From an uncultured delta proteobacterium (GTDB taxonomy: Bacteria > Desulfobacterota > Binatia > UBA9968), in the NCBI GenBank assembly GCA_963745035.1, contig CAVUVW010000014.1, positions 576,001 to 640,000 of the forward strand: DNA of 64,000 nucleotides. The letters are read 5' to 3'. This document shows positions 3,553-39,567 of this stretch, piece after piece. A model generated the notes under the pieces. That model saw only the letters and a program-made list of their open reading frames with translations. It searched no databases and was not told the origin of the DNA. A program made the translations under genes and the position numbers. The first letter of the stretch is position 1; each line of letters begins with the position of its first letter.

Positions 3553-3747
3553 AGCACTCCTTTTGATGTCCTACGAATGGCCGCGGCCGCGACGGTCTTC
3601 ACCGGTTGACTGCGATGGCCGAGCCGGGCGTGCCTCCTTCCAACACCTTGGTCAAAGCTTGGGAGAGGAATAATTCTTTCGCGAAAACTACCTCCGTGAA
3701 TCCTCGTGGCTTGACTGCTTCTAGTAGTAAACAACGGCTTTCGTGCC

Positions 3748-3767
3748 TATTGGACCAAAGACCAATA
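3748..3767 (-). promoter_or_regulatory. Palindromic operator box 1 (TATTGGTCTTTGGTCCAATA on - strand), upstream of cNMP-patatin gene
   Basis: 15/16 match to TATTGGAC-N4-GTCCAATA; on - strand TACTAG starts at 3726, 22 nt past the box. Confidence 0.75.
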
Positions 3768-3948
3768 TCCAGGGCATGACACAGGGAACGCACCCAGTAT
3801 ACTGCCGAAGTCACGGCTGGCCAATTAAGAAGATGAGCCGCCCGCGCTAGTACGCAAATAGCCGGCGACTTCTGGACGTGCCCGTCTGTGAGCAGCGAAT
3901 GGCCGGAATTTCTCGAACAATCTTTGCTTAGATGCAGCGAGCCCGCCG

Positions 3949-3968
3949 TATTGCACCAAAGTCCAATA
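3949..3968 (+). promoter_or_regulatory. Operator box 2 (TATTGCACCAAAGTCCAATA), upstream of porin-carbonic anhydrase-mscS
   Basis: 15/16 match; TAGAAA starts at 3990. Confidence 0.8.
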
Positions 3969-4103
3969 TACAGATTTGCTGCTATTGGCTAGAAAGGACG
4001 GTATTACGCGAACTCAGACATAATTCATAATTGACGGCGATGTATCACCGAAATTTGCATGTTATCGAGCATTTTTAGGGTGACTTTAGTTAAGATAAAC
4101 ACA

Positions 4104-5460
4104 ATGAGCGGAACGGTTTTACTGTTTTGCATCGCCTTTTACCGCGCAGCTCTGGGCGGGCGAAGCGGCATTGTCGGCGCCATATTCCGGTAATCTTCTG
4201 ACCCGCACCACGCTCAGCGGCGATTGGGGTGGATTGCGCAACGAGTTGGCCGCCAAAGGCGTGACGATCGACATGAGCCTGACTCAGTCCGCGCAAGGCA
4301 TCGTTCACGGAGGCAAAGACACCGGCTGGCAGTACAGCGGCGGGCGCGGCGACATCATCCTCAACCTGGACACGCAGAAACTCGGCCTCTGGCCTGGCGG
4401 CTTTTTTAACCTCGAAGCGGAAGGCAATTTCATCCCCGCAGATAATTTACGCAAGTCTATCAACGGCAGAACCGGCGCGCTGATGTACGTCAACAACAGC
4501 CAAATATATCCGACAACCGCGGGCGACAACTTCAACTTGCCCGCATTAAACTTTACTCAAAATCTTTCACCGTACTTTGGTTTGACGATCGGCAAGTATG
4601 CCACAATCACCTCCAGCTCTGGAGATATGAACGAGTTTGCCCATGGCAAGGGCGACACGCAATTCATGAATATGGCATTCAACGTGAATCCGGTTACCGC
4701 CTTGACCGTGCCCTATTCCACCTTGGGAACCGGGGTGATCGCGTGGCCGACGAAAGATCCTAAGCAGGCGATATTGAGTTTTTATTTAATGTCATCGACC
4801 GGCAAAGCCAGCACCAGCGGCTTCGATGACTTGAACGACGACAATTTGACCTTTGCCGGCGAGGGGCAAATGAGAACGGACTTTTTCGGTTTGACCGGAC
4901 ATCAGCTTTTCGGCACGATTTTCTCGAACAGGGAATTTTCGTCGATCGACCAGAACGCGCGCTTCATCTTCGAGAACGGAGCTCTCGAAGGCAAGAAAGG
5001 CTCGTGGAACGTTTATTATAACTTCGACCAGTACGTCTACGAGCCTAAGAAAGGATCCGGAGAAGGCATCGGAATTTTTGGCCGCTTCGGCGCATCGGAC
5101 GGCAATCCCAACTTCATGCATTTTTTCTACAGCTTGGGGATCGGCGGCAAAGGGGTGATTGCCAACCGCGAACGCGACCAGTACGGCTTTGGTTTTTACT
5201 ACATCGACGTCAAAAATCCGGAACTTCGAGGTTTGTTTCGGAGCATCAAGTTACTGCGCGACGAGTACGGCTTCGAGGCTTTCTATAATATCGCCATCAC
5301 GCCGTGGCTGATGCTGACTCCTGACATTCAAGTTGTCCGAGGCGCGCAGAAGGAGCAAGTCACAATCGGACGCAGCCTCCCGGGAGTACCGTTCATCGCC
5401 AGCCGGAAAAGCATTGGCACCGCGACGGTTCTCGGACTGCGCATGCAGATGGTGTTCTGA
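4104..5460 (+). CDS. Carbohydrate porin (OprB family); signal peptide joined by +1 frameshift in T-run ~4137
   Basis: TLSGDWGGLRNELAAKG N-terminal motif, EAFYN...LTPDIQ, terminal Phe; ATG 4104 gives a signal-like MSGTVLLFCIAF. Confidence 0.8.
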
Positions 5461-5520
5461 AAAGGAAAGAGGTCGACGAACGAAAGAGAATAGACAACCA
5501 ACAAAAAGGACCAACTCAGA

Positions 5521-6258
5521 ATGACACGACTGAAAATTGCACTCGGGTTCATCCTGCCGCTTGCCATCGGCTCGACAAGTTCGGTGCTGGCGCAACATTG
5601 GAGCTATGAGGGCGACTCCGGACCGCAGAACTGGGGCAAGCTGGATGCGAAGTTTGCCGTTTGCGCCAGCGGCAAGAACCAGTCGCCCCTCGACCTCAGA
5701 AACTTTGTCGAGGCCGATTTGAAGCTGCTCAAGCTCGACTACAAGGCAGGTGCCGCGGACATCGTAAATACCGGCCACACGGTGCAGATCAATTACGCCC
5801 CCGGAAGCGCTCTCTCCGTCGACGGCATCAGTTTCGAGTTAAAACAATTCCACTTTCATTCACCCAGTGAAAACAAGATCAATGGCAAGCAGTTTCCGCT
5901 CGAGGGCCACCTGGTGCACGCCGATAAAGAGGGCGATCTCGCGGTTGTAGCGGTTATGATCGAGGAAGGTGCGGCCAATCCTCTGCTCACCAAGCTCTGG
6001 GAGAAGATACCGAAAAAGGGTGAAAAAGGGCCGGTCCCCGGCGGATTGAGCGTAACGCAACTGCTGCCGAAGGGTCGGGATTATTACCGCTTCGACGGCT
6101 CGCTCACGACGCCGCCGTGCAGCGAAGGCGTGCGCTGGTTCGTCATGAAGCGCCCCTCCACCGCTTCGAAGGCGCAGATCGAGCAGTTTTCCAAAACTCT
6201 GGGCTTTGCGAATAACCGCCCCGTGCAGCCGGCCAACGCGCGCGTCGTTCTGCGATAG
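5521..6258 (+). CDS. cah: Secreted alpha-class carbonic anhydrase
   Basis: Signal peptide, HWSY, QSP, QFHFH (Zn His), EGHLVH, GSLTTPPCSEGV, NNRPVQ. Confidence 0.95.
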   Translation: MTRLKIALGFILPLAIGSTSSVLAQHWSYEGDSGPQNWGKLDAKFAVCASGKNQSPLDLRNFVEADLKLLKLDYKAGAADIVNTGHTVQINYAPGSALSVDGISFELKQFHFHSPSENKINGKQFPLEGHLVHADKEGDLAVVAVMIEEGAANPLLTKLWEKIPKKGEKGPVPGGLSVTQLLPKGRDYYRFDGSLTTPPCSEGVRWFVMKRPSTASKAQIEQFSKTLGFANNRPVQPANARVVLR

Positions 6259-6611
6259 CGCGGCTACGGGAGAATTTGCATGCAGTGTTCGGCCGCAAAT
6301 TTCGAGTCGGGGGGCATGGTAGGATTTCGCCGACGCTGTGCAGGTCCGAAGCGATCTCGCGGCCGCGGTTTACCATCCGGTGCATGGCTGAGGGTCTTGT
6401 CCTTTCCTTTGTTGCAGTGTGAAATCCGTTTGTTGCGCGACGGGTGGATCGGATGAACGCGAAGATCTATCGAGAATTTCTCCACGAGGACAGAAAGGTG
6501 GCCTTTCCGAGAGCTGATAGCCGTTCGCTAGCAGACACCATTGCAAGCTCTAAGACTGCCAAACAACTTAAGATGAGTAGAAGCGCTGCTCGGCAACGCG
6601 GCGTGAACAGA

Positions 6612-8261
6612 ATGATGATTCTAAGGATCATGCGGCAGATGTTGTTGGCAAGCGGTTGGGCGTTGGTGTGGATCATGGTGAGCTTTGCGCCGCCGGCGTT
6701 CGCCGCGGAGGGAACTCAGGCTTCGGGTTTAGATGCGGAGCTGCCGTCCGCGCCCGTCGAGGTCGATGGCTATGTACTTTTTCGTGTGCGCGGCGCGTCG
6801 TTTTTTCCGGCGGAAAAACGCGCCGCGGCCATTGCAGAACGGATCGAGGCCTTCGCCGCTGACCCGAGCGTACGTGCCGACGCCGTCATTCCCGTCGAAA
6901 TTGAAAACGGCATTGCGATCATGGCGGGAAGTCAACGCTTGATGGTGGTGGTGGAAGAGGATGCCAAGCTGGAGTCCGTTGACCGCACGGTGCTGGCAAA
7001 GGGTATCGCGCGCAGCATAAGTCAGGCTGTTGCGCGGCATCGATACGCGCGCAGCCAGGAAGCGCTGATTCATAGTCTCCTGCTTGCCGCCGGCGCTACC
7101 CTGGTCTTCGCGGCGTTCATCGCACTCGTCCTATGGCTGTCAAGGCGATTGCACGCGGGCTTGGAGCGACGCTACCACAAACGCGTTCACTCGGTGGGCA
7201 TCCAGTCTTTTCAGATCGTCCGCGCCGAACAGATCTGGGGCACGCTCAAAAGATTCATCAATGGAACACGCCTGGCGGTTATCTTGGTGATGGGTTTTCT
7301 CTATCTGCAATACGTGCTCGCCTCCTTTCCCTGGACGCGAGGAGCTGCGAATCGATTGCTCACTTACGTCCTCGGTCCGATTGGCACGATGGGGCGGGGC
7401 ATTGCAAACGAGATCCCGGATATCATCTTCCTGGTCATCTTGTTTTTCGTCACGCGCTACGTGCTCAAATTGCTGCATCTCTTCTTCGCCGCGGTCGGGC
7501 GCGGCGAAGTCTCGTTTGCCGGTTTCGACCGTGACTGGGCCGATCCGACGTACAAGCTCCTGCGATTGGGGATCGTTATTTTCTCGGTGGTCGTCGCCTA
7601 TCCTTATATCCCCGGCTCAGGCTCGGAGGCGTTCAAAGGAATCTCCATCTTCGTCGGCATCGTTTTCTCGTTAGGCGCGTCCTCCGCCGTTGCAAATATG
7701 ATCGCCGGTTACATGCTGACCTACCGGCGCGTTTTCAGAGTCGGTGATCGCGTCAAAATCAACGACATCATGGGTGACGTCATTGAGACCCGGCTTCAGG
7801 TGACGCATCTGAGGACCGTCAAGAACGAGGAGGTGATTGTTCCCAATTCCACCATCCTCAGTAATGAAGTGGTGAACTACAGCTCGCTGGCGCGCAGAGG
7901 AGGGCTGATCCTGCACACCAACGTCGGTATCGGTTACGAAACGGCGTGGCGCCAAGTCGAGGCGATGCTCCTGATGGCCGCTGAGCGCACTCGCGGCTTG
8001 ATGAAAGATGCTCAGCCCTTCGTTCGTCACCAGGCGCTCAACGACTTTGCGGTGAACTACGAGATCAACGTTTACTGCGATGACGCCCAAAAGATGGGAG
8101 AGATTTACACCGATTTGCACCGGAATATCCTCGACGTGTTCAACGAATACGGCGTGCAGATCATGACTCCGGCCTATGAGGGTGATCCGCAAGAGCCAAA
8201 GGTCGTGCCAAAGGAGCAGTGGTTTAGCGCGCCGGCGAAAGTCGGTGCCGAATCAAAGTAG
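6612..8261 (+). CDS. Mechanosensitive channel, MscS family, with periplasmic N-domain (start approximate)
   Basis: TM segments followed by FRVGDRVKI, VIVPNS and IGYE MscS motifs. Confidence 0.9.
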   Translation: MMILRIMRQMLLASGWALVWIMVSFAPPAFAAEGTQASGLDAELPSAPVEVDGYVLFRVRGASFFPAEKRAAAIAERIEAFAADPSVRADAVIPVEIENGIAIMAGSQRLMVVVEEDAKLESVDRTVLAKGIARSISQAVARHRYARSQEALIHSLLLAAGATLVFAAFIALVLWLSRRLHAGLERRYHKRVHSVGIQSFQIVRAEQIWGTLKRFINGTRLAVILVMGFLYLQYVLASFPWTRGAANRLLTYVLGPIGTMGRGIANEIPDIIFLVILFFVTRYVLKLLHLFFAAVGRGEVSFAGFDRDWADPTYKLLRLGIVIFSVVVAYPYIPGSGSEAFKGISIFVGIVFSLGASSAVANMIAGYMLTYRRVFRVGDRVKINDIMGDVIETRLQVTHLRTVKNEEVIVPNSTILSNEVVNYSSLARRGGLILHTNVGIGYETAWRQVEAMLLMAAERTRGLMKDAQPFVRHQALNDFAVNYEINVYCDDAQKMGEIYTDLHRNILDVFNEYGVQIMTPAYEGDPQEPKVVPKEQWFSAPAKVGAESK

Positions 8262-8371
8262 AACAGGAACACCGAACGATCTGACCCCCTCTATTTCAGC
8301 ATTCGAACCGTAGCGCTCAACGCAACGAAAAATCTGTTTGAGCTGCACATTCCAATCTTCTGTCCGTTTCT

Positions 8372-8391
8372 TATTGGACCAAAGTCCAATA
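8372..8391 (+). promoter_or_regulatory. Operator box 3 (TATTGGACCAAAGTCCAATA, perfect), upstream of lipoprotein cluster
   Basis: Perfect 8-4-8 palindrome; TTCGC then TAGATT starting at 8413. Confidence 0.85.
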
Positions 8392-8894
8392 TACGCGCTT
8401 GATCGGGTTCGCTAGATTTCAAATATCGACGCTATCGGTATCTCGAGCCTTACTCGGGATCGCTTCTTGGACGAGGAAGCGAAATCTACGTGCAACATCA
8501 TCCGAGCAAAAGTCATCAGGAAAAGCCGGGCGAATTTTATGATGACGTTGCACGGATTTGGATGATTGCGCTGCCGGCGTATGCTTCCGCGGTTAGATCC
8601 ACTGCACGGTTCGCCGAAGCCCTGCAAGTTCGCGGTTCGTTGGAATTGGCGGTGGTCTCCGAACGAGACTTCGAGCCACGCAGCAGCGGCAGTTGCGCGT
8701 CGCGCATCTACGGCAAAGCTTCCAGCAATCTGCCCTGGACGATTTTGTCGCGGGCACGATACGACCAGGAATGGCACGATCGAACAGGTGCTATTCGACA
8801 GCATGAGCCGCGATGACGCGACCGAAATCGCCACCGTGAGCTATGCCAGTATGCATCATCAACCATGGTCGCCATTCGTCGAGGAGATCATCTC

Positions 8895-9636
8895 ATGAAG
8901 ACAACCACCCTGCGATGTTTGGGAGTCTTGGCGTTTTGTTTTTTCGCTGGCATGCGGCCAGACCGGAGTTCGCGAAGCCAAACGGATTCCGCAAACCGAT
9001 CTGCCGCGACCCGGCCGGATCCTCGTCTATGACTTCGCGGTGAGCGAGCAGGAAGTCAAAGGATATCAGGAAATCATGCGGCAACAGCCGGCGATCAAAG
9101 ATGTCGCCGAGCGTGAACGCCTGGTTGCGCAAGAAGTCAAGGATGCGCTGGCGGAGGAGTTGGTCGATGCATTAAAGCCGCTCGGATTCATCGTCGAGCG
9201 GGTGCCGCGCGGTACTCGCGTTAGCGATCACGATCTATTGATCGTCGGCCAGTTCATGACCGTCGAAGAAGGCAATCCGTCAAAGCCGTTTACGGTGGGC
9301 TTCGGCAGCGGCGCTTCGGGTGTCGGGACGGAAGTGCAGGTATATCAGGCGCCGCAATCGCGCAGAGTGCTGCAATTGATGACGCAATCGGACAGCGGCA
9401 AGCTGCCCGGCGCGGCGCCTCTGCTGGGCGCGGGGGCGGTAGCGCAGGGAGGAGTCAGCGCCGGAATGGCCGTGCCCAAGGCCACCGTTTCCGGCGTGAA
9501 AACATATCAATCGGTTGTCGCCCGGATGGCTGCAGCAAGCGGCAATCAGGTGGCACGTTACCTATCCGAGTTTTTTGCCAAGCAAGGATGGATCAGATCG
9601 GATCAGGTGCGAAAAGCGACGGTGATCACTGAATAG
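8895..9636 (+). CDS. DUF4410-like lipoprotein; +1 frameshift in T-run ~8940
   Basis: GAGGAG RBS; MKTTTLRCLGVLAF... joins LACGQTG...LPRPGRILVYDFAV and ORF 9040-9636 (VGFGSG, SGKLPGAA). Confidence 0.65.
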
Positions 9637-9722
9637 TTTAGCACGGCAGATGACGACAAGTTCCGCACGCAGGGAAGGATGGCGCCAGAGAAAAACCAAG
9701 AATTCGCTGGCCGAGGAGTCAG

Positions 9723-10115
9723 ATGACAATGGTTCAAGCACTGATGAAAATAGCACTGGCTAGAGCAATGCAACCGACTGCTCGCCGATGGCTCGGTATT
9801 ATTATCGTCGCAACGATCGCGTTTACCGGGTGCGTTGTCTACGAGCCGGTGCCTGTGCCGGCCCCGAGCACATTCGATCGTTCCTGGAACGCCGCCCTCG
9901 CCGCGGCACAGGACGAGGGCGTGCGGATTACTTCCGAGAATCGAGGCAGCGGAGTGATCCTGGGTTCTCGTAACGAGCAGGAGGTCACGATCAGCGTTCA
10001 GTCCCAGGCCGATGGCGGTGCGCGCGTGGAAATCAGTGCGCGCGGGCCGAAGGGCGCCGACACCGGCTTGGCTAATCGAATTTCCCGCGCCTACGACCGG
10101 CGCATGGGGAGATAA
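9723..10115 (+). CDS. Small hypothetical lipoprotein
   Basis: Hydrophobic segment with FTGC lipobox; true start may be the later Met (MQPT). Confidence 0.65.
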   Translation: MTMVQALMKIALARAMQPTARRWLGIIIVATIAFTGCVVYEPVPVPAPSTFDRSWNAALAAAQDEGVRITSENRGSGVILGSRNEQEVTISVQSQADGGARVEISARGPKGADTGLANRISRAYDRRMGR

Positions 10116-10158
10116 CACGCAGTTCGGATGGTCGCTCACGAATCTAAGGAGTACTCAT

Positions 10159-12042
10159 TTGGATCGCCATTCAATTCTATGGGTGCTGACGGCGCTACTG
10201 TTTCTGGCGGCCGGGTGCGCGACTCCGATCGGCGTCAATCAGGTCGATCGCGCTGTCGCGTATCGTTCGCTCACCGCCAATGCGATGTCGGCGGGGAGGG
10301 CAAGCTCTTTTTCGGCGCGCGAGCTGATGAACCGCGACTTGTACCAGCGCTTCGATGAAGATCCTGAGAATGCTCTCGCCGAACTGCACGCCGATCTGGC
10401 ACCGCAGGGCGATGAGGACCGCCTCTTCGCGCTCGCCGAGCTTTCTTTTCTTCACGCACTGAACAGCGGCAATCGCTCGTACTATCTCGCCGCGGCCGTC
10501 TACGCGTACTCGTTTGTCCTTCCAGGCAAGCGCGGCACCTCGCCAAGGGGCATCGACCCGCGGCTGCGTTGGGCGGTGGATCTGTATAACCAGTCGCTCT
10601 CCCAGGCTGCGAAATCGGATGAAGGACCCTACGCGGTCCCTATGGGCGGTACGTTCAAGCTTCCGTTCGGCGAATTGACCGTGGAATTCGACGAGCGCGA
10701 TCTCATCTGGTCGGGCTTCCGCATGAAGGATTTTATTCCCGCGGCAGATGTGGAAGTGCGTGGCTTGCGCAACCGCTACCGGACACCCGGCATCGGCGCC
10801 GCGCTCGCCGCTTCGATCGAGCCGATTGAGGGCGTGACGGATAAAAGCTCCATGCGCATTCCGCCCAGGCTCAGGATTCCCGTCACGGCCTTTTTGCGGC
10901 TCGACGATCCGCGCGCCGCTTTGGCTTCCGGCCGGTTGAAAGGGAAATTGGAATTCTACACGCAGGACTCGAGTCGGTCGCTCAAGATCGAAGGACTGGA
11001 CGTTCCGATCGAGTACGAAACCACTTCCGCTCTGGCCCTTACTTTGGAAGGCTCGCCGGTTTGGGATTTCGAGATCGCCGGTTTTCGCTCCGGTGACTTC
11101 ACCATCGGTGGAGCAAATCTCCGCGAAGGTCTGTTCATGCTCCATCCGCGCAAGGCCGGCCGGACCCCGGTCGTGCTGGTGCACGGAACAGCTTCGAGTC
11201 CGGCACGGTGGGCGGAGTTGGTGAATGAATTAGAGAACGACCCGCGATTTTGGCAGAATTATGAGATTTGGCTGTTCATGTACAATACGGGTAATCCCGT
11301 CGCTTATTCAGCGATGCTCCTGCGCGAAGCGTTGACCCGCGTTGTCAAAGAATTGGATCCGGACGGGACCGATCGGGGACTCCAACAGATGGTCGTCATC
11401 GGCCATAGCCAAGGCGGTTTGTTGACCAAGATGACGGCGATCGACAGCGGCATGCACCTCTGGCCTTTCAAGGTGCCGGCCGAAGAATTGGATGTCGAGG
11501 CGGAAAGTCGTGAGCTTCTGACCAATGCATTGCTGATCAAACCTCTGCCGTTTGTCCGCCGGCTGATCTTTATTGCAACGCCGCACCGGGGCAGCTATCA
11601 GGCTCTAGGGCTCTTGGGCAATTTGGCCTCCTGGCTGGTGCATCTACCCGGCCGCTTTACCAAATTGAGCCTGGAGCTGTTGACGCTCCAGAGCAAGGGC
11701 ATTCTTCTCGCCCCGGTGACCGGCATGCCGACCAGCGTCGATAATATGAACCCCAATAACCGCTTTATTCGAGCCTTATCGGCGATTCCCATCGCTCAGG
11801 GAGTAGTCGCCCACTCGATCGTCGGTGTCGATGGCAGCGGCCCGCCGGCGGAGGGTGGCGATGGTGTAGTCAAGTATTCCAGCGCTCACATCGACGGTGT
11901 CGAGTCGGAGAAGATCGTGCGCTCGGGGCACTCCATGCAGGGCAATCCGGAAACCATTCAAGAGGTGAAGCGCATCCTGACCGAACACGCCCAAAAAATT
12001 GCGGCGGGCGTTGAGAGCGGCATAGCCGGGTCCTTGCAGTAA
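10159..12042 (+). CDS. Alpha/beta-hydrolase lipoprotein (lipase/esterase-like)
   Basis: AAGGAG RBS + TTG start; LAAGC lipobox; VLVHG, GHSQGG nucleophile elbow, ATPHRGS, DGVV, catalytic His region SGHS. Confidence 0.85.
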   Translation: MDRHSILWVLTALLFLAAGCATPIGVNQVDRAVAYRSLTANAMSAGRASSFSARELMNRDLYQRFDEDPENALAELHADLAPQGDEDRLFALAELSFLHALNSGNRSYYLAAAVYAYSFVLPGKRGTSPRGIDPRLRWAVDLYNQSLSQAAKSDEGPYAVPMGGTFKLPFGELTVEFDERDLIWSGFRMKDFIPAADVEVRGLRNRYRTPGIGAALAASIEPIEGVTDKSSMRIPPRLRIPVTAFLRLDDPRAALASGRLKGKLEFYTQDSSRSLKIEGLDVPIEYETTSALALTLEGSPVWDFEIAGFRSGDFTIGGANLREGLFMLHPRKAGRTPVVLVHGTASSPARWAELVNELENDPRFWQNYEIWLFMYNTGNPVAYSAMLLREALTRVVKELDPDGTDRGLQQMVVIGHSQGGLLTKMTAIDSGMHLWPFKVPAEELDVEAESRELLTNALLIKPLPFVRRLIFIATPHRGSYQALGLLGNLASWLVHLPGRFTKLSLELLTLQSKGILLAPVTGMPTSVDNMNPNNRFIRALSAIPIAQGVVAHSIVGVDGSGPPAEGGDGVVKYSSAHIDGVESEKIVRSGHSMQGNPETIQEVKRILTEHAQKIAAGVESGIAGSLQ

Positions 12043-12214
12043 AGAGCGACTTTGCCCTGTCAATCAATACATCGATTGCGATGCGGATGGACATGCGAAT
12101 CTTATTGTTGTACGCAGAGTACGTTTCGCGTGCTCGCACGCCCGTGCTGGGAAAACTGGATTGCAGCGCGCTGCGGCGCCAGACAATGGGTTTGGGTCAT
12201 GGGAGGTAATTGAG

Positions 12215-12655
12215 ATGAATTCGAATCTCTTCAGGTCGGCCTGCGTTTCTCTGACGCTCGTCATGGCTCTCGGCTCGAGCTCCACGCTCTATGCCATCGA
12301 CAATAATCACCGGTACTTCGCCTACGGCCTCGGGCAACGGAGCTGCGAAGACTACGTGAAATTCAGAGAGAAAAAACTTGAATCCCTAGAACAAAAGCAC
12401 GAACGCTACACGAGGGATGAGCTTTACGAGATCGTCGATCGGATCGTCGAGCACTGGATCGCCGGGTTTCTCACCGCGCACAACTTCTACGTGAGCGACA
12501 CTTATGATGTCGCCGGAAAAACCGACATCAACGATATAGAGGCGCGGCTGGAGAAAAGCTGCCGGGCCAATCCGAAGCAGCGCTTCGCCGAAGCCATGAT
12601 CTCGGTCGTGCAGCAGCTCAACCCCCAGCGAGTAAGGGCGGAAGGCGTCAAATGA
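12215..12655 (+). CDS. Secreted helical protein with Cys pair, possibly HdeA/HdeB-like
   Basis: GGAGG RBS, signal peptide, SCEDY...WIAGF...CRANP pattern. Confidence 0.55.
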   Translation: MNSNLFRSACVSLTLVMALGSSSTLYAIDNNHRYFAYGLGQRSCEDYVKFREKKLESLEQKHERYTRDELYEIVDRIVEHWIAGFLTAHNFYVSDTYDVAGKTDINDIEARLEKSCRANPKQRFAEAMISVVQQLNPQRVRAEGVK

Positions 12656-12710
12656 GAATCATGGGAGGTCTGAAACTCGGTGTGGCAGAGAACCCGTTAA
12701 GGAGTCAGCA

Positions 12711-13043
12711 ATGAAAGTGACCAAATGTCTTTCAGCGATGATCTTGACCATCTTGTTTCTAGGATGTTCGGAACCTATGACGACGCGGGAGAAGGGCGCG
12801 GTGGTCGGCACGGTCGGCGGTGCCGGCTTGGGTGCAATCATCGGCAGCGCCACCGGTAATGCCGGCGCCGGTGCCGGGATCGGCGCCGCCGTCGGGCTTC
12901 TCGGCGGAGCGGTGATCGGCGATCAGATGCAGGCGCGCCAGCAACAGGATGCGGCAGTGCAACGACAGATGCAGGCGCAACAAGCCGAGATCGATCGCCA
13001 GCAAAGGGAGTTGAACCAACTCAAGGCACAGCAGGCGCGCTAG
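12711..13043 (+). CDS. Glycine-zipper lipoprotein
   Basis: FLGC lipobox, GAVVG...GAIIG...GAGIGAAVG glycine zipper, Gln-rich coiled coil. Confidence 0.85.
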   Translation: MKVTKCLSAMILTILFLGCSEPMTTREKGAVVGTVGGAGLGAIIGSATGNAGAGAGIGAAVGLLGGAVIGDQMQARQQQDAAVQRQMQAQQAEIDRQQRELNQLKAQQAR

Positions 13044-13194: not shown

Positions 13195-13214
13195 CATTGG
13201 ACTAAGGTCCAATA
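13195..13214 (+). promoter_or_regulatory. Operator box 4 (CATTGGACTAAGGTCCAATA)
   Basis: 15/16 match; TTCGC then TAAGCG starting at 13236. Confidence 0.85.
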
Positions 13215-13324
13215 CCGTCACTTTTTTGAATTCGCTAAGCGTTAGCTGGCGAGGCTGCTGGAACCCGTAAAGCAGCTCCAATGGTGGTCGTGCGCACGCT
13301 TCACGGTTCTTCTGGAGACGAACA

Positions 13325-17298: not shown

Positions 17299-17318
17299 CA
17301 TTGGACCAAGGTCCAATA
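17299..17318 (+). promoter_or_regulatory. Operator box 5 (CATTGGACCAAGGTCCAATA), upstream of RND operon
   Basis: 15/16 match; TTCGA then TATCTA starting at 17340. Confidence 0.85.
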
Positions 17319-17442
17319 TCCGCAACTGACGCATTTCGATATCTAACGCTAAAGTCCGGCGGTGGTCTTTATAGCAATCGCGGACGATCGCGGATAGGAA
17401 TGGTGCGCGTACCGTAGAACATTCGATAGAGAACGCGCTTAT

Positions 17443-27156: not shown

Positions 27157-27176
27157 TATTGGACCAAAGTCCAATA
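27157..27176 (+). promoter_or_regulatory. Operator box 6 (TATTGGACCAAAGTCCAATA, perfect), upstream of fdh operon
   Basis: Perfect palindrome; TATTGG starts at 27198. Confidence 0.85.
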
Positions 27177-27363
27177 CCATGCTATCTAAGCTTCGAATAT
27201 TGGGAGTCATGCTGGTCGCGCGGCGATCCGAGCAGACATTGATGAATTGAAGTCCACTGCATCGAACGTGCGACGTAATACCGAAGAAGCGTAGCACCCC
27301 GAGATCTACTCCTGATCACCTTCCGCGTCTGCGTAGACCTTTTGAAAAATAGAAAGGCACAAG

Positions 27364-30300
27364 ATGAAAAAAGCCGATGGAGAGGAGCAAAGGCCGGATG
27401 GTCACGATGACGCGAAGGCGGCATCGCTGAAGCCATCGCGGCGGCAGTTTCTCAAGGGGCTGACTACAGGCACCGTCGCGATCAGCGCCTTGACTCAGTC
27501 GGGCTGCGCTCCCGCCGTTCCTCCCCTCAAAACCCGCGGCGCGACCAATACGACGACGGTCTGTCCCTTCTGCGGCGTCGGCTGCGGCCAGGTGGTCTCC
27601 GCGCGCGGCGGCAAGGTGATCCACATCGAGGGCGATCCGGACCATCCGATCAGCGAAGGAACTTTGTGCAGCAAAGGCGCGGCCGGCATCCAGGTAGTGA
27701 ACAATTCGCGGCGCCTGCAAAAGGTGCTCTATCGCAAACCCAACGGCGCCAAATGGGAAGAAAAAAGCTGGGACTGGGCATTCGAGCGGATCGCCGCGCG
27801 AGTCAAAGAAACACGCGACAAGACCTTCAAGCAATCCCTCGACGGGCGTGTTGTTAACCGCACCGAGGCGATCGCTTGTCTCGGCGGCTCGGCCTTGGAC
27901 AACGAGGAGGCTTACCTCCTCGTGAAACTGATGAGGGCCCTCGGCCTGGTGTACGTCGAACACCAGGCGCGGCTCTGACACAGCTCCACGGTCGCCGGTC
28001 TGGCGGCCTCGTTCGGCAGAGGGGCGATGACCAACCATTGGGTCGACATGCTCAATGCCAATGTCGTCCTGATCATGGGCGGAAACCCGGCGGAGGACCA
28101 CCCCATCGCGATGAATTGGCTGGCGCGCGCCAAAGAGCAGGGCACCTACATCCTGCACGTCGATCCGCGTTTCAATCGCACCAGCTCGATCGCCGACGTG
28201 TTCGCCAAACTGCGCTCGGGCACCGATATCGCGTTCGTCGGCGGCATGATCAACTACGCCATAGAACATAATCGCATCCAGCAGGAATACGTACGCGAGT
28301 ACACCAACGCCTCCTGGATCGTCGGCGACGGCTACAGCTTCACGGACGGGCTGTTTGCCGGCTACGATCCCAAAACCAGCCGCTACGATCGATCCCAGTG
28401 GATCTACGCGCTGGACGCGCAGGGACGGCCGCGGCGCGACCCTACGCTCAAGCATCCCCGCTGCGTGTTTCAACTATTGAAGCAGCACTTCTCGCGCTAC
28501 AACCCCGACGCGGTGTGCCGGATCACCGGCACACCGAAAGAAAACTACCTGAAGGTGTGCGATCTCTACACCTGGACCTATGCTCCCGACCGGGCCGGCA
28601 CGTGGCTCTATGCCATGGGCACCGCGCAGCACAGCCACGGCACACAGAACATCCGCTCCTATGCCATCCTGCAGTTGCTACTCGGCAATATCGGCGTCGC
28701 CGGAGGCGGCGTCAATGCGATGCGCGGTGAGTCCAACGTACAGGGTTCCACCGATCAAGGCCTTAACTATGATGGCCTGCCAGGATACCTGCGGCTTCCG
28801 GTGGAGGGTGACATAGATTTAAAAACGTATCTTTCACGTGTAACGCCCATCAGCCACGATCCTACCAACAGCGCGAACTGGCTGCAGAACACGCCGAAGT
28901 ATGTCGTCAGTTTGCTGAAAGCGTGGTGGGGCGAGCACGCGACCAGAGAGAATGACTTCGACTTGGCTCACCTGCCGAAGCTCGGCAGTGGATTTCAAGG
29001 ACAGGGCTATGCGTTTCTCGCGCTCACCCACGCCATGCTTGCCGGCGAAATCAAGGGACTCTTTTGCTTCGGCCAGAACCCCGCGGTGGGCGGCGCCAAC
29101 GCGCGCTTGATCCGCGCCGGACTGGATAAGCTCGAGTGGATGGTGGGCGCGGACTTATTCGAGCACGAGACCGCGGGCTTCTGGAAGCGGCCGGGCGCGG
29201 ATCCGGCTCGAATTCCCACCGAAGTCTTCGTTCTGCCTGCCTGTTCCGGCGTCGAAAAGGAAGGCAGCATCGTCAACAGCGGACGCTGGGTGCAGTGGCG
29301 TCACCAGGCCGTCAAGCCCATCGCAGACAGCCGCCCCGACCTCGACATCGTCGACGGCCTCGCCAAGGCGATGAAGCGTGCCTACGAGAAGGACGGAGTA
29401 TTTCCGGAGCCGATCCGCCATCTCGCATGGGACTATGGAGAGCACGCCGACCCTCATCGCGTCGCGCGCGAGCTGAACGGGCGCTTCTTAGTCAATGTGG
29501 CTGAAAAGGACGGTAAAGAGTTCACTGCCGGCAAGCAGGTGCCGGGCTTTGCACAGTTGCGCGACGACGGCAGTACGATGTCGGGGAACTGGATCTACTG
29601 CGGCGGTTACACCGAAGAGGGCAATCTGGCCGCTCGGCGCGATACCACCGATGCGCCAAACAAGATCGGACTCTCTCCGAAATGGGCATGGACGTGGCCG
29701 ATGAACCGGAGGATTCTCTATAATCGCGCATCGGTCAATCGCAAAGGCGAGCCGTTCAACCCGCGCAAGTGGGTGATTCGCTGGAACGCCGAGAAGAATG
29801 CGTGGGAGGGCGATGTGCCCGACGGCGGCATGCCGCCAGGCGAGGCCAATCCCTTTATCATGCTGGCATCCGGAGTCGGACAGCTCTATTCGCCAGACCT
29901 CGTGGACGGTCCTTTTCCCGAGCATTACGAGCCGGTCGAGAGCCCGGTGAAAAACCCGTTCTCGAAAATTCAATCGAGTCCGTGCGCGCAGGTCTGGCAT
30001 TCCACCGAATTCGATCGCTATGGCAAACCCGATGTGTTTCCGATCGTCGCGACGACATACCGGGTTTCGGAGCACTGGCAGACCGGCGCCATGAGCCGCA
30101 ACATGCCCTGGCTTGCCGGCCTGGTACCGAGCCCCTTCGTCGAGATCGGCACCGCCTTGGCGAAGCGCCAAGGAATCGAGAACGGCGACAAGGTGATCGT
30201 CAGCAGCGCGCGAGGTTCCATCGAGGTCTACGCGCTCGTGACCGAACGGTTCCAACCGTTTTTTGTCGAAGGCCAGATGATCGACGAGATCGGCCTGCCA

Positions 30301-30435
30301 TGGCACTGGGGCTACGCCGGTCTCGTGCAGGGCGACATCTGCAATGATCTTACCGCCAGCGTCGGCGACCCCAACTCATACATCCCCGAGAGCAAAGTAT
30401 TTCTCTGCAACATCAAGAGGAAGGACCGAGCATGA
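27364..30435 (+). CDS. fdnG: Tat-exported formate dehydrogenase alpha subunit (FdnG type), selenocysteine at UGA 27976-27978; ~1023 aa
   Basis: SRRQFLK Tat motif, CPFCGVGC...C 4Fe-4S, EHQARL-UGA-HSSTV...FGRGAMTNHW in frame with ORF 28027-30435; RGESNVQG. Confidence 0.93.
27979..28008 (+). promoter_or_regulatory. Bacterial SECIS hairpin
   Basis: GGTCGCC-GGTCT-GGCGGCC stem-loop (27990-28008); the GGU CUG apex has the same spacing from UGA as the E. coli fdhF SECIS. Confidence 0.8.
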
Positions 30436-31241
30436 GCACACCCGCAGTGAAGCCGAAAGCGATGATTCAGGACAATACCCGGTGCATCGGCTGCCGCGCG
30501 TGCATGGTGGCCTGCAAGTCTTGGAATGACCTTCCGGAGGATAAGACGGACTTTTTCGCCGGCGACGGCTATCAGAACCCGCGCGATCTCGACGCCAACA
30601 ACTACAATCTCATCACCTTCAATGAGATCGTGACCGGCGCCAAGCCCGACTGGGTGTTCGGGCGCCAGCTCTGCATGCACTGCGAGCATCCCGCCTGCGC
30701 GTCGGCGTGCCCGACCACGGCGTTGACCAAAACGCCGATCGGCGCCGTCGTGTTCAACGAGGACCGCTGCATCGGCTGCCGCGCCTGCATGCAAGCATGC
30801 CCGTTCATCATTCCCAAATACGACTACAACAGCTTCGCGCCGAAGATCCACAAGTGCACGTTCTGCGCCGACCGTCTCGAGGTTGGCATGGACCCGGCCT
30901 GCGCGACCGTGTGCCCCACCGGCGCGATCAGTTTCGGCGATCGCGAAGATATGGTGACCGAAGCGAAGCGGCGCATCGCCGCCGCTCCGGGCACTTACAT
31001 TCCCGAAATCTATGGGCTGGAAGAGGTCGGCGGCACCAGCGTGCTGCACCTTTCTTCCGTCCCGTTCGAGCAGATCGGTTACATCACCAACCTGCCCAAG
31101 ACGCCCATGCCCGACCTCACGCACCGATGGCTACGCGTCACGGCTCCGGTGTTTGCCGTCTTGTACGCAGTGTTCGGCGCCCTGAATTGGATCGTGCGAC
31201 GACGCATGCGCCGCCAAGGCCACGAGGGAGAGCACGCATGA
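30432..31241 (+). CDS. Fdh beta / HybA-like four-cluster Fe-S subunit with C-terminal TM
   Basis: CIGCRACMVAC, CMHCEHPACASAC, CIGCRACMQAC, CTFC...CATVC; YGLEEVGGT. Confidence 0.9.
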   Translation: MSTPAVKPKAMIQDNTRCIGCRACMVACKSWNDLPEDKTDFFAGDGYQNPRDLDANNYNLITFNEIVTGAKPDWVFGRQLCMHCEHPACASACPTTALTKTPIGAVVFNEDRCIGCRACMQACPFIIPKYDYNSFAPKIHKCTFCADRLEVGMDPACATVCPTGAISFGDREDMVTEAKRRIAAAPGTYIPEIYGLEEVGGTSVLHLSSVPFEQIGYITNLPKTPMPDLTHRWLRVTAPVFAVLYAVFGALNWIVRRRMRRQGHEGEHA

Positions 31242-32419
31242 ACTGGCGCATCCGGCTGACGTGGTGGGATAAATTGCTGCTCGCGATCATTGCGGTGGCC
31301 GCCGTCGTCGGCTTCGTGCGGTTCGCGACCGGCATCGGCACAATCGCCAACATCAACAACGCCTACCCGTGGGGTTGGTGGGTCGGCTACGGCATCATGA
31401 CGATGATCGCCATCGGAGGTGTCGGCTTCACGATCACGGCCTTGGTCGAAATCCTCGGCGTGCACCGCTACCACTCTTTTTTGCGTCCGGCCGTGCTCAT
31501 GGCTTTTCTCTGCTATATCAGCGCGATCACCATGCTCATGGTGGAACTTGGCCGGCCGTGGAAAGTCTGGTTGGTGCTGGTTTCCTGGGCGCCGACCTCG
31601 GCGCTTTACGAAGTCGGCTGGTGCGCATTTTTGTATCTGACTGTGCTCGCTTTGGAATTCGCGCGGGTCCCTCTCGAGCAGGCCGGCTGGCGACGCGCGT
31701 TTCGCATCGTGAGCGCGATTTACATTCCAATCATGCTCCTCGGCGTGACGCTGTCGCATCTGCATCAGTCATCGCTCGGCACTTTGATGACGCTTATTCC
31801 GCACAAGGTGAACGAGCTTTGGTGGTCGGATAATTTGCCATTGGTCTATCTCTTCTCCGCGATGATGGCCGGACCGGCGATGGCAATCCTCGAGCATCTC
31901 GCGGCGGCGCGTTGGCTCGGCTTCGAGCCGCGCATGAATCTGCTCGCCGGCCTCGCGCGCATCGAAGCCTGGCTCGTCGGCCTCTTCTTCGCCTTCCAGA
32001 TGGGCGATCTTTTTTATCGTGGTGCTGCTGACGCTATGTTCATCAGTTCATGGTTCGCCGTTTCCTTTTGGGTCGAGATCGTTTTCGGCCTGATGCTCCC
32101 CTTTGTTCTACTGATGATGCCGGAAGTCCGCGAAACGCGGCGGGCGCTCGCCACAGCGTGTGCTTTGGTGATTGCGGGCGTGTTGCTGCATCGCCTCAAT
32201 GTGGCGGTCATCGGTCTGCGGGCACGTCACTGGGAAACCTATGTGCCTTCGTTGGGCGAGGTCACGATCACTCTCGGCATTACTGCAGCGGCAATATTTG
32301 CGTTCGGCTGGCTCGCGCGCATTCTTCCCATTCACGAAGAATTGCCTGCGCCCGAGACAAGGCCTCTTCCTGCGGGTCAAGTTGCCGGCACATGGCGCGG
32401 CGCCGAAGGAGTGTCTTGA
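31238..32419 (+). CDS. HybB-like NrfD/PsrC-family membrane anchor
   Basis: YPWGWW, ELGRPW, SALYEV, LSHLHQSSLG, LHRLNV, YVPS motifs; ATGA coupling to the upstream gene. Confidence 0.85.
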   Translation: MNWRIRLTWWDKLLLAIIAVAAVVGFVRFATGIGTIANINNAYPWGWWVGYGIMTMIAIGGVGFTITALVEILGVHRYHSFLRPAVLMAFLCYISAITMLMVELGRPWKVWLVLVSWAPTSALYEVGWCAFLYLTVLALEFARVPLEQAGWRRAFRIVSAIYIPIMLLGVTLSHLHQSSLGTLMTLIPHKVNELWWSDNLPLVYLFSAMMAGPAMAILEHLAAARWLGFEPRMNLLAGLARIEAWLVGLFFAFQMGDLFYRGAADAMFISSWFAVSFWVEIVFGLMLPFVLLMMPEVRETRRALATACALVIAGVLLHRLNVAVIGLRARHWETYVPSLGEVTITLGITAAAIFAFGWLARILPIHEELPAPETRPLPAGQVAGTWRGAEGVS

Positions 32420-33005
32420 TGACCACAGAACCACCTCCGCGGTTTCCCACTTTTCGCGTCATCGTCCTGCTCGTGCTGCTCGTCAATCTCATCCTCACCG
32501 TAGCCCTGGTGAGCCAGGTGCGCGAGCTGCAGCAGCGCGTTGCGAGCTTGCCTCCCGATCTCGCCGTCAAGCGCGACGTGGCCATGCTGCGGCCGCTCCG
32601 GATTCGCGAGATCATCACGCAGAACTGCGTGGAGTGTCACAGCACCCGGCGTCTCGGCGTGACGGTGTCCATGGAACCGTCAGAGGTCCAGCGCACAGTA
32701 GAGCGCATGCAAAACCACCCGGGCGCCAATATCCCGCCAGCGGAATTCGAGCGCATCACCGCTTCCCTGCTGGTGGCTCGCTGCGCGCGCTGCCACGGCG
32801 AGGAGACGCTTAACCTGATGGTCCTCAAGACCAGCCTGAGCGCTTGGCCACGATCCGTCGCATGGCGGCGCTCCCCGGCTCGGGCGTGCGGCACGATCAG
32901 GCGCTCGCCATTGCAGAAGCGTTCGAGAAGCTGATGAGCGACGGTGGCGACCGTGGTCGGACGGATGAGAAAAATAATTTGTCGACGGTTCAGCCGTCCC
33001 GGTAG
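32419..33005 (+). CDS. Membrane-anchored diheme cytochrome c; frameshift ~32832 (ORF as given ends 32934)
   Basis: N-terminal TM; CVECH...TVERM...PG and CARCH...(shifted frame) TIRRM...PG repeats. Confidence 0.75.
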
Positions 33006-35038: not shown

Positions 35039-35143
35039 CGCCGGTGGGCATAACACTACGACAGCGCCAAGCATTCGAGAGTCTGATCGTCGCAACGGCA
35101 CCGGAGACGAGCCACTTCTGGAGGTGATCTGGAGGTGATATAG

Positions 35144-35453
35144 ATGCGTGCTCGAAAATACAAAAGAGATTGCGCGCTTGAAGCCAAGCTCACCGTTGCT
35201 GAGGAACGCGTCCTGACGCTGATTTCTCAATCGATGACGAACCGAAGCTGCTCATAAATTGGGGACCAGCCCTGCCACGGTAAAGCGGCACCTGGAAAAT
35301 ATTCTGCGCAAGCTACCAGTGCGTAATCGCTTCGAAGCGGCGATATATCGCATGAGCATGGATCGGTCTTGCGCGCGCAACAAAAGCGATTGTCCACTCG
35401 CTAAATGGCGAAAATCTTACGATGACAAGGTAAATGGACCGATCGGCCGATAG
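35144..35453 (+). CDS. Stand-alone LuxR/GerE-type HTH regulator; frameshift ~35245
   Basis: GGAGGTG RBS; LTVAEERVLTLISQSMTNR / AAHKLGTSPATVKRHLENILRKL-x-VRNR matches the LuxR C-terminal HTH. Confidence 0.75.
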
Positions 35454-36939: not shown

Positions 36940-37425
36940 TATTAAGTGAGCCGCCGTAGCTGGCAACAAATGCCGGTCGGCTTATCCCGGCGACAGCTTG
37001 GCAGTAAAAGTTCAAGTTGCCGTGGAATATCCATCAGCTCACCTGGATTGTCAACGTAGAGTTTTTCGTTAAAAAGCCGACCGGCGCGGCAGCTTTTTTA
37101 CCTAACGATCGGCGGCCTATTTCGGCCAGACCATCGCAAAACTTCCGCAGGATTGAACTGTACGACGCTTCAATCGCCAGATGCAATTTCTCCGATAGGC
37201 TAATAGCGCAATGTTGAGAGCGAACGCGCCATACACCACTTGCTCATAACAATCGCTAGAAATGCCGATTGGCTGATGCTAAACGTTGACTGTTTCGAAC
37301 GCAGTGTTTATGACGCGATATATAGGCATCGTATCGGGTATGTTTGAACTAGCCTTAGCTCTGCTGCCCAACGCGACCTAGGAACTCTGCATCGCCCGCA
37401 CGGAACAACGTTCGAGGATAAGCCA

Positions 37426-38028
37426 TTGGCAGAGCACGCCGTTACGATTCTCATTATTCTGAGCGTTGTTCTTATCGGTCTGCTGATCGTTCGGCCGTCG
37501 CTTACCGCGGTCACCGGCGGCAAGATTCTAGCCTTTATCGCCCTATTTATTTTGCCGATCACCGCGCTAGCATTGGGCTCGGCGGTTCATCTCAAAGAGG
37601 CCACATCCACCAGCTTCTGTCTATCCTGCCATCCGATGGAGGCCTACGGAAATAGTCTGCGCATTGACGATCCAACCTATCTTCCCGCCTTCCACTTCCA
37701 AAACAATCTCATTTCGCGAAGTGAAGCTTGTTATACCTGTCATACTAACTACGCGATGTTTGGCGGCTTACACGCCAAGCTCGGCGGCCTCAAGCATCTC
37801 TACGTCTACTACTTCGGGACGGTCCCGGAAAAGCTCGCTCTTTATGAGCCTTACAACAATCGTGAATGCCTGCACTGCCACGACGGCGCGAGATCGTTTG
37901 AAGAAACCTCGCCTCACAAAGAAATGCGGGAGCAGCTGGGCACCAATGACATGTCATGTCTGACCTGTCATAACAAGATCCATGACGTTCCGCAGGTGGA
38001 CACGATGAAGCTGTGGAAAGGACCGTGA
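37426..38028 (+). CDS. NapC/NirT-family tetraheme cytochrome c
   Basis: Two N-terminal TMs; FCLSCHPM, CYTCH, CLHCH, CLTCH. Confidence 0.85.
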   Translation: MAEHAVTILIILSVVLIGLLIVRPSLTAVTGGKILAFIALFILPITALALGSAVHLKEATSTSFCLSCHPMEAYGNSLRIDDPTYLPAFHFQNNLISRSEACYTCHTNYAMFGGLHAKLGGLKHLYVYYFGTVPEKLALYEPYNNRECLHCHDGARSFEETSPHKEMREQLGTNDMSCLTCHNKIHDVPQVDTMKLWKGP

Positions 38029-38285
38029 TGATGGCCGAGATTACCTATCGATTGCAACGAAGGCTCAAGATCGCCGCTTACCTGCTGATTGCCGGGCTGC
38101 TGGTGGAAGCCGTGACGTTGTACTGGTCCAGCCCCCTGAGTTTCATGCTTTTCATCGGGGTCGGCGGAACTCTCATCGGTTTGGGCATCATCGTTTACCT
38201 CACGGCCATCGTTGACCCCATGAACCGGCCGAACGCGACGGCTGAAACAATGTTTCGAGGACGTAAAAGAACGAATTTCAAATGA
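38028..38285 (+). CDS. Small two-TM hypothetical protein
   Basis: Two hydrophobic segments; coupled to the stop of the upstream gene. Confidence 0.6.
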   Translation: MMAEITYRLQRRLKIAAYLLIAGLLVEAVTLYWSSPLSFMLFIGVGGTLIGLGIIVYLTAIVDPMNRPNATAETMFRGRKRTNFK

Positions 38286-38296
38286 GGAGAAAAGCA

Positions 38297-38500
38297 ATGA
38301 ACATAGCGCGTACATTAGCGATCAGCAGCATCGTTTGTTGTTCGGCTGGCCCGTTTCACGGGTTGTGGCCGCTGATGCCCAGGCGGGTAAGGTAGTGTAT
38401 GACAAAAATTGCGCGGGGTGCCACGGCGCCGACGGCAAAGGAAATCCGGTCTATGATCAAAGCTCCTCGGAGAAAAAGGCTTGAATATCGTCACTCTCAT
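38297..38500 (+). pseudogene. Degraded class I monoheme cytochrome c
   Basis: GAGGAG RBS, ATG 38297; shifted frame reads ADAQAGKVVYDKNCAGCHGADGKGNP (CXXCH 38410-38424), then frameshifts and truncation. Confidence 0.65.
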
Positions 38501-38668
38501 GTGGATCGTCACGCGGAGATCTCCGTGACTAGCTCATAGTTTCTTACTTACTGGACTCGTGCCAAAACCCCCTCGCAGTCGGCCGATTACTGGCGACTGT
38601 GCACCATCTTTCGACTCTTTTTCTTCGCGATCTTCACCGCGGCCTTTCTGCCCTGGGTGCTCGCGCCA

Positions 38669-38688
38669 TGTTGGACTAAGGTCCAATA
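38669..38688 (+). promoter_or_regulatory. Operator box 7 (TGTTGGACTAAGGTCCAATA), upstream of frd operon
   Basis: 15/16 match; TGA then TACGCG starting at 38710; extra half-site GTCCAATA at 38744-38751. Confidence 0.85.
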
Positions 38689-38785
38689 TGCGCCCCAGCG
38701 GCTTCCTGATACGCGTTTAAGAAAACTCATCCCGGGCTACCACGTCCAATACTGAATCGAGCGGCATAGAGATGGAGGAAGAGCC

Positions 38786-39559: not shown

Positions 39560-39567
39560 CGGGGCCA

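Follow-up and report, generated by a model that had tools for sequence, protein, structure and literature searches.

Boxes and predicted promoters at the locus

The window analysed here is a 64,000-nucleotide stretch (C14:576001-640000, C14 being contig CAVUVW010000014.1) of the 7.4-Mb genome of an uncultured delta proteobacterium of the Binatia (GenBank assembly GCA_963745035.1), and all window positions below are relative to it. It carries seven copies of an 18-bp palindromic box with the consensus RTTGGAC-YAAR-GTCCAAT, in which two 7-bp half-sites flank a 4-bp spacer (7-4-7), each next to a predicted promoter. The seven hexamers listed in the initial annotation are present where it had placed them, each with its TA 22 nt past the 18-bp box (TACTAG at 3726 on the minus strand, TAGAAA at 3990, TAGATT at 8413, TAAGCG at 13236, TATCTA at 17340, TATTGG at 27198, and TACGCG at 38710), as are the TTCGN preceding three of them (8413, 13236, and 17340) and the TGN preceding one (38710).

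Box 1 (3749..3766, minus strand) is a variant that reads ATTGGTC-TTTG-GTCCAAT on the minus strand, with a reversed spacer, and faces cNMP-binding/patatin genes (3552-1668, minus strand); its predicted promoter (3721..3749, minus strand) comprises a -35 of TAGGCA (3749-3744), a -10 of TACTAG (3726-3721), and a predicted start near 3714. The remaining sites are on the plus strand. Box 2 (3950..3967), also a variant (ATTGCAC-CAAA-GTCCAAT), lies ahead of genes for an OprB-family porin (4171-5460), carbonic anhydrase, and MscS, and its predicted promoter (3967..3995) combines the -35 TATACA, TTGGC, and the -10 TAGAAA (3990-3995) with a start near 4002. Box 3 (8373..8390; ATTGGAC-CAAA-GTCCAAT) precedes a DUF4410 gene (frameshifted, to 9636) and lipoprotein-like genes, with a predicted promoter at 8390..8418 (-35 TATACG, TTCGC, -10 TAGATT at 8413-8418, start near 8425). 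Genes for a small secreted-looking protein, a SpoIIAA-like protein, and an SDF transporter follow box 4 (13196..13213; ATTGGAC-TAAG-GTCCAAT), whose predicted promoter spans 13213..13241 (-35 TACCGT, TTCGC, -10 TAAGCG at 13236-13241, start near 13248). Box 5 (17300..17317; ATTGGAC-CAAG-GTCCAAT) lies ahead of an RND efflux operon and then nrfH/nrfA-like genes, with a predicted promoter at 17317..17345 (-35 TATCCG, TTCGA, -10 TATCTA at 17340-17345, start near 17352), and box 6 (27158..27175; ATTGGAC-CAAA-GTCCAAT) is ahead of a formate dehydrogenase-N operon (27364 onward), with a predicted promoter at 27175..27203 (-35 TACCAT, -10 TATTGG at 27198-27203, start near 27210). The last site, box 7 (38670..38687; GTTGGAC-TAAG-GTCCAAT), precedes the fumarate reductase genes frdC-frdA, fumarase, frdB, and a DASS transporter gene (38786 onward), and its predicted promoter (38687..38715) has the -35 TATGCG, CCTGA (a TGn motif), the -10 TACGCG (38710-38715), and a start near 38722.

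A genome-wide scan for the box with an open spacer and up to two mismatches returns 32 matches, of which 24 were kept; the eight dropped matches lie outside the cluster described below and are without a YAAR-type spacer, and one of them (C5:239940) does show a TA at offset 23. The 24 kept boxes score at least 25.5 with a profile trained on the YAAR sites of relatives, and the next unrelated match scores 18.3. Twenty-three of them fall between C14:510408 and 670002, a 160-kb cluster, and one is at C13:352882. AA occupies the spacer centre on one strand in 24/24 boxes, and boxes were oriented by this polar YAAR spacer, with AA on the promoter strand. When the offset is counted in nucleotides from box end to TA, a TA is found at 22, 23, or 24 in 3, 15, and 5 boxes, respectively (23/24), compared with 2/24 on the opposite side (background TA frequency 0.035). 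The spacing is therefore 23 ± 1 genome-wide: the fixed distance proposed at first is real, however it is not invariant. The chance of the seven-site spacing within the window is p ~1.6e-6 (intergenic TA frequency of 0.045; either side and 40 offsets allowed). Boxes are single in genome scans, except for one close pair (C14:651363 and 651391) that faces opposite genes; GC content is 0.57-0.60 and an island-like shift is absent. The sole box outside the cluster, at C13:352882, lies about 1.2 kb past tRNA-Pro (C13:351560), ahead of a gene for a secreted-looking protein.

Six of the seven window sites obey the spacer polarity. The exception is box 1, the only one of the 24 without a TA at 22-24 on its AA side: the AA strand is the plus strand, the TA is on the minus strand, and a half-site is changed. 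The same variant box and a minus-strand GTTTAC-TAC block at offset 24 are kept in one relative, G019 (this genome only), in which the flanks have diverged, which suggests that the minus-strand promoter is probably real. The flipped orientation assigned earlier to this site is thus probably right, at the cost of breaking spacer polarity. The TTGGTC variant with a reversed spacer (TTGGTC-CTTG) recurs in several related Burkholderiaceae loci; at L262, L265, L266, L269, and L274 a second box located 500-600 nt past the regulator gene has the reversed spacer, the TTGGTC half-site, a TTG -35, and a -10 with C at -12. To the right of box 1, the plus strand holds ATGACA-16-TATACT (10 of 12) at 3776-3803, which is not kept in G019, and the cNMP/patatin leader (3640-3700) contains a block kept in G019 (around TCGCGAAAACTACCTC on the plus strand) outside the called open reading frame.

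The exact box is found in 17/24 genomes of the genus and in 0/16 genomes of other families of the same order. A genus sample of 60 regions from 15 genomes, picked by a TA-free box search, yields 85 boxes, 82 of which have a TA at 22-24 (63 at 23 and 19 at 24), compared with 11 on the opposite side. A collection scan, also without the TA in its pattern, lists at least 122 loci; the 80 labelled loci among the matches listed belong to Proteobacteria, Desulfobacterota-type genomes, Acidobacteria, Bacillota, Rokubacteria, and others. The 126 non-redundant boxes among the matches listed have a TA at offset 23 in 62 cases and on the opposite side in 8, with T at 23 in 71, A at 24 in 86, and T at 28 in 69. 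A further set of 119 collection sites was made by removing labelled or likely Binatia loci, with 42 unlabelled loci kept without screening. Spacer polarity also holds in relatives, where a hand count of 91 sites (open spacer, TA required) gives 85 xAAx and 6 YTTR. In the cultured strain Paraburkholderia phymatum STM815, both boxes on pBPHY01, at 400020 and 401153, have TATTCT/TAGGCT at offset 23, and the 40 kb examined there contain no helix-type regulator gene. Matches on a Sinorhizobium plasmid span query positions 14-30 only, not the whole box. More than 200 box sites were seen in total across this analysis. Nine RNA runs gave matches with small shares (0.05-0.10), all to assembled contigs of distant relatives, and the four of these runs aligned on window 37000-46000 are mostly less than 95% alike and without usable ends.

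Core promoter elements

Judged by its base signature, the TA is a sigma-70 -10 element, as the initial annotation had assumed: T-12, A-11, and T-7 stand out across phyla, with TAnnnT outside the genus, and this would place the box centre near -43.5. T-7 occurs in 70% of sites outside the genus and 35% within it. The suggestion that these -10 hexamers are weak does not survive calibration against the genome itself. Across the genome, TA peaks 17-18 nt from TTGACW, and 35% of TTGACW-17-TA sites have T-7, the same share as at genus boxes; among 22 TTGA-spacer-TA rows from tRNA promoters (19 distinct; selected on TTGA and TA), T-7 occurs in 11, and TAGAAA, TAGTTT, and TAGATA are used behind TTGAC. 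The -10s are thus normal for the organism, and the degenerate element is the -35. The commonest form of the latter is TATACA, and a TTG -35 is found in 0/15 own and 1/63 genus offset-23 promoters. Offsets 0-5, whose first T belongs to the box, match TTGACA at a mean of 3.1 of 6 positions versus 1.9 on the opposite side; a -35-like hexamer thus stands 17 nt upstream of the -10, with TTG at offset 0 in 29 versus 9 of the 119 collection sites.

Within the genus a TTCG block is found at -17 to -14 (G-14 in 81-93%), which fades outside the genus as TAnnnT appears. Ten of 12 consensus matches are reached by 0/87 genus sites and 3/119 other sites. Among 81 sites with A-11, T-12 is missing in 15/22 that have a TTG -35 and kept in 49/59 that do not (Fisher p 2e-5, a value inflated by related genomes, which are not independent). 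This trade-off between a TTGACA-like -35 and T-12 hints at continued recognition of the -35 by sigma region 4. A consensus promoter scan of window 3400-18000 recovers none of the five box promoters there, as expected of T-7-poor promoters, and its 7 hits are at chance level (5.9 ± 2.2). A sigma-54 reading of TTCGC/TTGGC was rejected, as GG is absent 10 nt upstream. Housekeeping promoters in this genome are poor in T-7 and use spacers of 17 and 18 nt to about the same extent, and two short CarD-domain genes are present besides Mfd; T-7-poor, CarD-dependent promoters are reportedly known in Rhodobacter.

The candidate regulator

A gene at C14:519110-519871, 57 kb upstream of the window, encodes a response regulator with a receiver domain and a LuxR-type helix-turn-helix (HTH) domain (PF00072 and PF00196), whose near protein relatives are labelled Candidatus Binatia. 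A gene for a 1259-aa multi-PAS histidine kinase (PAS-HisKA-HATPase) precedes it, and after it come a box and a gene for a single-domain receiver. The regulator is present in 12/24 genus genomes, all 12 of which have boxes, and in 0/7 box-free genomes; an exact, co-oriented box lies within about 0.5 kb downstream of 10/12 genus regulator genes.

The association extends to the recognition helix. Of the HTH rows in loci found by the box, 22/25 have the helix EKT[IV]K[VA]H, which StyR (EVTVKVH) and Cupriavidus controls lack. A second family sample comprises 251 genomes from the family of a Paraburkholderia genome, in which the helix EKT[IV]K[VA]HR is encoded by 7/7 exact-box genomes versus 12/244 without the exact box, and in 11 of those 12 a variant box lies near the helix gene. 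A stricter helix pattern missed 3/5 box genomes, and the relaxed pattern gave a regulator match in 5/5. TA is at exactly 23 in 14/16 gene-proximal boxes of this family. Ten paralogue loci with other helices show no box-like site, and Cupriavidus necator pBB1, with the helix EVTIKVH, contains no box with fewer than two mismatches in 40 kb. In the genus and in this second family, then, a dyad site co-occurs with the regulator, as in a NarL/FixJ-type regulon.

Several other genes were rejected as the regulator. Orthology with FixLJ was discarded on NCBIfam cut-offs (215 versus 255 bits for FixJ, 424 versus 850 bits for the kinase part), and the FixJ-like paralogues with other helices are those that lack the box. 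A NarL-like gene at C13:1399914 (EKTVKTH) lies outside the cluster, and neither a broken LuxR-type gene in the window (35140-35450) nor a truncated HTH at C14:510193 has a receiver domain. The former is a frameshifted stand-alone LuxR-type HTH gene (35140-35453), beside which a lone half-site, GTCCAATA, occurs at 35546. The latter (L016 14190-14430; C14:510193-510425) has the helix EKTIKVD, sits at the left cluster edge with the first box directly after it, and looks like the remnant of a second regulator copy. An orphan MASE1-PAS histidine kinase within the cluster (L017 10566-12641) could feed the same regulator.

On this co-occurrence and spacing, the box is likely to be the binding site of the FixJ/StyR-type regulator encoded 57 kb upstream, which would activate sigma-70 promoters from about -43.5. 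Some observations weigh against this assignment. A regulator search gave no match in five box-bearing genus genomes, which are fragmented assemblies, and the box is absent at 6 of the 20 helix loci examined. Among the matches listed, 43 of the 119 collection boxes are without a TA at 22-24, some with a TTG -35 and a non-T -12, and the collection matches listed include Binatia and form an uneven sample. The figure of -43.5 assumes the T at -12, and a start 1 nt further would give -44.5.

Proposed mode of activation

The earlier preference for an activator over a repressor is supported, and activation is much likelier, as judged from spacing and predicted promoter weakness: across phyla the position varies by no more than ±1 bp, and both hexamers are almost never near consensus. 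The proposed box centre near -43.5 also holds if T is -12, with the 16-bp core at -51 to -36. The overlap of the box with the -35 that had been claimed is not supported; the core ends at -36, and of the box no more than the outer TA flank reaches -35/-34. The parallel that had been drawn with FNR/CRP is not supported either. A CAP class II site is centred at -41.5, covers the -35, and contacts sigma region 4, whereas the 16-bp site from which NarL activates yeaR is centred at -43.5 and lies immediately before the -35, in a non-canonical class II mode (PMC10853779). NarL at yeaR is described there as making no contact with sigma region 4; the C-terminal domain of the RNA polymerase alpha subunit (alpha-CTD) sits between the two monomers, in the minor groove, on the template bases A-44, T-43, and T-42 (PMC10853779). 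The box abuts the -35 at -43.5, a position derived from the -10, and its TA is 23 nt away, compared with 21 nt from the StyR site STY2 to its -10; the predicted geometry is thus that of NarL at yeaR rather than that of CRP or StyR, from whose position it would be 2 bp off.

The response regulator would bind the palindrome as a phosphorylated dimer centred at about -43.5, with the -35 beginning right after it, and would switch on housekeeping sigma-70 promoters whose activity is predicted to be low in its absence. The alpha-CTD may then be recruited into the minor groove between the monomers, as at yeaR. This is our preferred reading of the spacer polarity and is held tentatively: the contact would account for the orientation of the spacer AA at -44/-43 in the direction of transcription, and this polar AA matches the bases contacted by the alpha-CTD in yeaR, which bears on the contact indirectly. 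Reversed-spacer sites (box 1 of the window and the Burkholderiaceae TTGGTC-CTTG sites) and the symmetric spacer of STY2 speak against this contact, as does DosR, for which a contact with sigma region 4 is described from a site near -43.5 (PMC13486717). The EL222 consensus has a WW centre (PMC10521638), and A/T at the box centre may likewise reflect the regulator's own readout.

A serious competitor, not far short of an even chance, is a variant of this scheme in which the same regulator acts as a canonical class II activator that covers the -35 and works via sigma region 4 in the manner of StyR, DosR, or LuxR, with the polar spacer a DNA-shape preference; the two are not exclusive. The 21 nt from STY2 to its likely -10, versus 23 here, does not favour it, and a symmetric dimer alone leaves the 85:6 polarity unexplained. 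The TTGACA-like content kept in the -35 and traded off against T-12 was also counted against it, as a suggestion that the -35 continues to be read by sigma region 4.

Known systems match the activator in part. NarL at yeaR shares the NarL/FixJ-type HTH, a 16-bp dyad at -43.5 upstream of a weak -35, activation, and a central non-template AA (PMC10853779). However, the NarL site is 7-2-7 (TAACCAATAAATGGTA), the regulator here is distant (E 7e-17) and below the NarL model cut-off, NarL sites occupy varied positions (-44.5 and -77.5 at ogt; PMC10853779) whereas nearly all boxes share one, and the alpha-CTD contact, shown for NarL, is a prediction here. StyS/StyR, together with TodT, TutB, and TmoT, shares the order kinase-regulator-box, a 6-4-6 dyad, and a single proximal activating site (PMC2442086, PMC5874301), and StyR is the closest solved full-length protein (1yio, E 6e-59). 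Unlike the box, its site is ATAAAC-N4-GTTTAT, with STY2 21 nt from the likely -10 in P. putida S12, its helix is EVTVKVHRHNI versus EKTIKVHRARV here, and it serves one catabolic operon versus about 24 promoters; K175 and V176 are kept and H179 is replaced by A, and with the differing box and spacing the regulator falls outside the StyR/TodT subfamily.

EL222, a LOV-HTH protein of Erythrobacter litoralis, has the recognition helix EKTVKMHR, sharing EKT-K-HR, and activates from a site just upstream of the -35 in synthetic promoters (PMC10521638, PMC5001607, PMC10374173); its consensus, RGNCYWWRGNCY, taken from a citing paper (PMC10521638), fits 6/7 window boxes. In contrast to the receiver domain and separate kinase found here, EL222 is a one-component blue-light LOV sensor, and the box is longer and stricter, with outer ATT/AAT. 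DosR/DevR of Mycobacterium tuberculosis has a GGGACT-type half-site with an A/T-rich centre and a proximal site at -42.5 to about -43.5 at many promoters (PMC3177182, PMC13486717), and some cargo types are shared (a Usp gene). DevR needs tandem in-phase boxes (PMC3177182), however, whereas the boxes here are single, and the regulator here is of the FixJ/StyR branch, with DosR chains not among the structure matches listed.

That the box is instead a repressor operator blocking the -35/UP region of otherwise active promoters is improbable. Repression is possible from a site that touches the -35, StyR has further sites at which it represses (PMC2442086), and half-sites occur downstream of one predicted start (38744); however, a position fixed to ±1 bp over several phyla is unneeded for steric blocking, hardly any of the promoters is strong at both the -35 and the -10, and the TTG -35 that tRNA promoters possess is found in 0/15 own and 1/63 genus offset-23 promoters. 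The half-site in question, GTCCAATA, lies at 38744-38751, about 22 nt past the predicted frd start, and might be a site of low affinity downstream of the promoter, comparable to STY3 of StyR.

A canonical class II activator of the CRP/FNR family binding TTGGA-N6-TCCAA is very unlikely. CRP sites are 5-6-5, and the box can be written in this form; FNR typically controls operons such as fdn, frd, and nrf, and the genome has three CRP-family HTH genes. However, these are on C2 and C20 with none in the cluster, the centre is at -43.5 and not -41.5, and the box follows one response-regulator helix in two distant lineages. CRP/FNR class II promoters do resemble the present ones in having the activator beside a poor -35, and differ in the centre at -41.5, coverage of the -35, the sigma region 4 contact, and the protein family (PMC10853779).

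Still less probable is a bipartite promoter, box plus TTCGNTA, for an alternative sigma factor (ECF or sigma-28-like) without a separate activator: the TTCG block is conserved in the genus and resembles a sigma-28 -10, however it fades outside the genus as TAnnnT appears (T-7 70%), no sigma region-4 match is found within C14:510-672 kb, and the 16-bp dyad, which follows the response regulator, indicates a dimer. The least credible reading, a recombination or cassette site whose TA spacing was inherited by copying, has in its favour the 23/24 boxes with directional spacers in one 160-kb cluster and gene content that varies among relatives, but 7-4-7 is short for a recombinase site, conservation is limited to box, -35, and -10 with variable sequence between, and divergent gene pairs have a box facing each gene.

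A broader synthesis, which we consider doubtful as a whole, would make the EKT[IV]K[VA]HR regulators a widespread, unnamed family running whole regulons by the -43.5 mode, for which the structural demonstration to date is NarL at yeaR: the spacer would be read by the alpha-CTD and not the regulator, the dyad would encode both occupancy and direction, core promoters would be kept weak by the -35/-12 trade, and in Binatia a heme-PAS kinase would gate the anaerobic-respiration and envelope cluster. The mechanism class is known, and the regulator family and regulon seem undescribed; the full spellings of the box were not found in print in a literature search outside which lay supplements and subscription journals, which could contain it. 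This analysis contributes a corrected promoter class, a calibration of the -10 specific to the organism, the trade-off between -35 and -12, and the polarity test. The boxes provide a large natural promoter set for one activator at one position, whereas structural work rests on single promoters, and the yeaR alpha-CTD model becomes testable by inverting four spacer bases, with P. phymatum STM815, whose two boxes have the same spacing, as a possible test strain. For an uncultured soil lineage they also name a candidate regulator, together with a predicted regulon of genes for anaerobic respiration and the envelope.

Targets, signal and neighbouring features

Predicted window targets include genes for a porin, carbonic anhydrase, RND efflux, formate dehydrogenase-N, and fumarate reductase as well as nrfHA-like genes, and the rest of the cluster holds genes for Mla-type transport, sulfatases, PPK2, phosphoketolase, Usp, and DUF3300/DUF2950. 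The histidine that serves as heme ligand in DosP has a counterpart in the kinase, whose fourth PAS domain (L017 1620-2012) aligns best with the heme-PAS sensors DosP and FixL. Since the targets include fdn, frd, and nrf, it is possible, if speculative, that the signal in this genus includes oxygen or redox state. Against this, many targets are envelope or hydrolase genes. The heme-type histidine is kept in 3/3 genus orthologues and absent from Burkholderia-type kinases, and oxygen sensing is therefore not general.

In the formate dehydrogenase-N alpha gene (27364-30435), an in-frame stop that follows HQARL (27976-27978) separates two halves of one frame; the genome has tRNA-SeC, and the stop is likely a site of selenocysteine read-through. 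Single frameshifts split many further genes (1668-3552, 17443-21849, 30707-32934, and others, among them patatin, RND pump, and NrfD-like genes) and are likely long-read errors rather than decay. At the fumarate reductase locus (38786-44225) the genes run frdC-frdA-fumarase-frdB, with genes for DASS transporters and an aspartase-like lyase after them.

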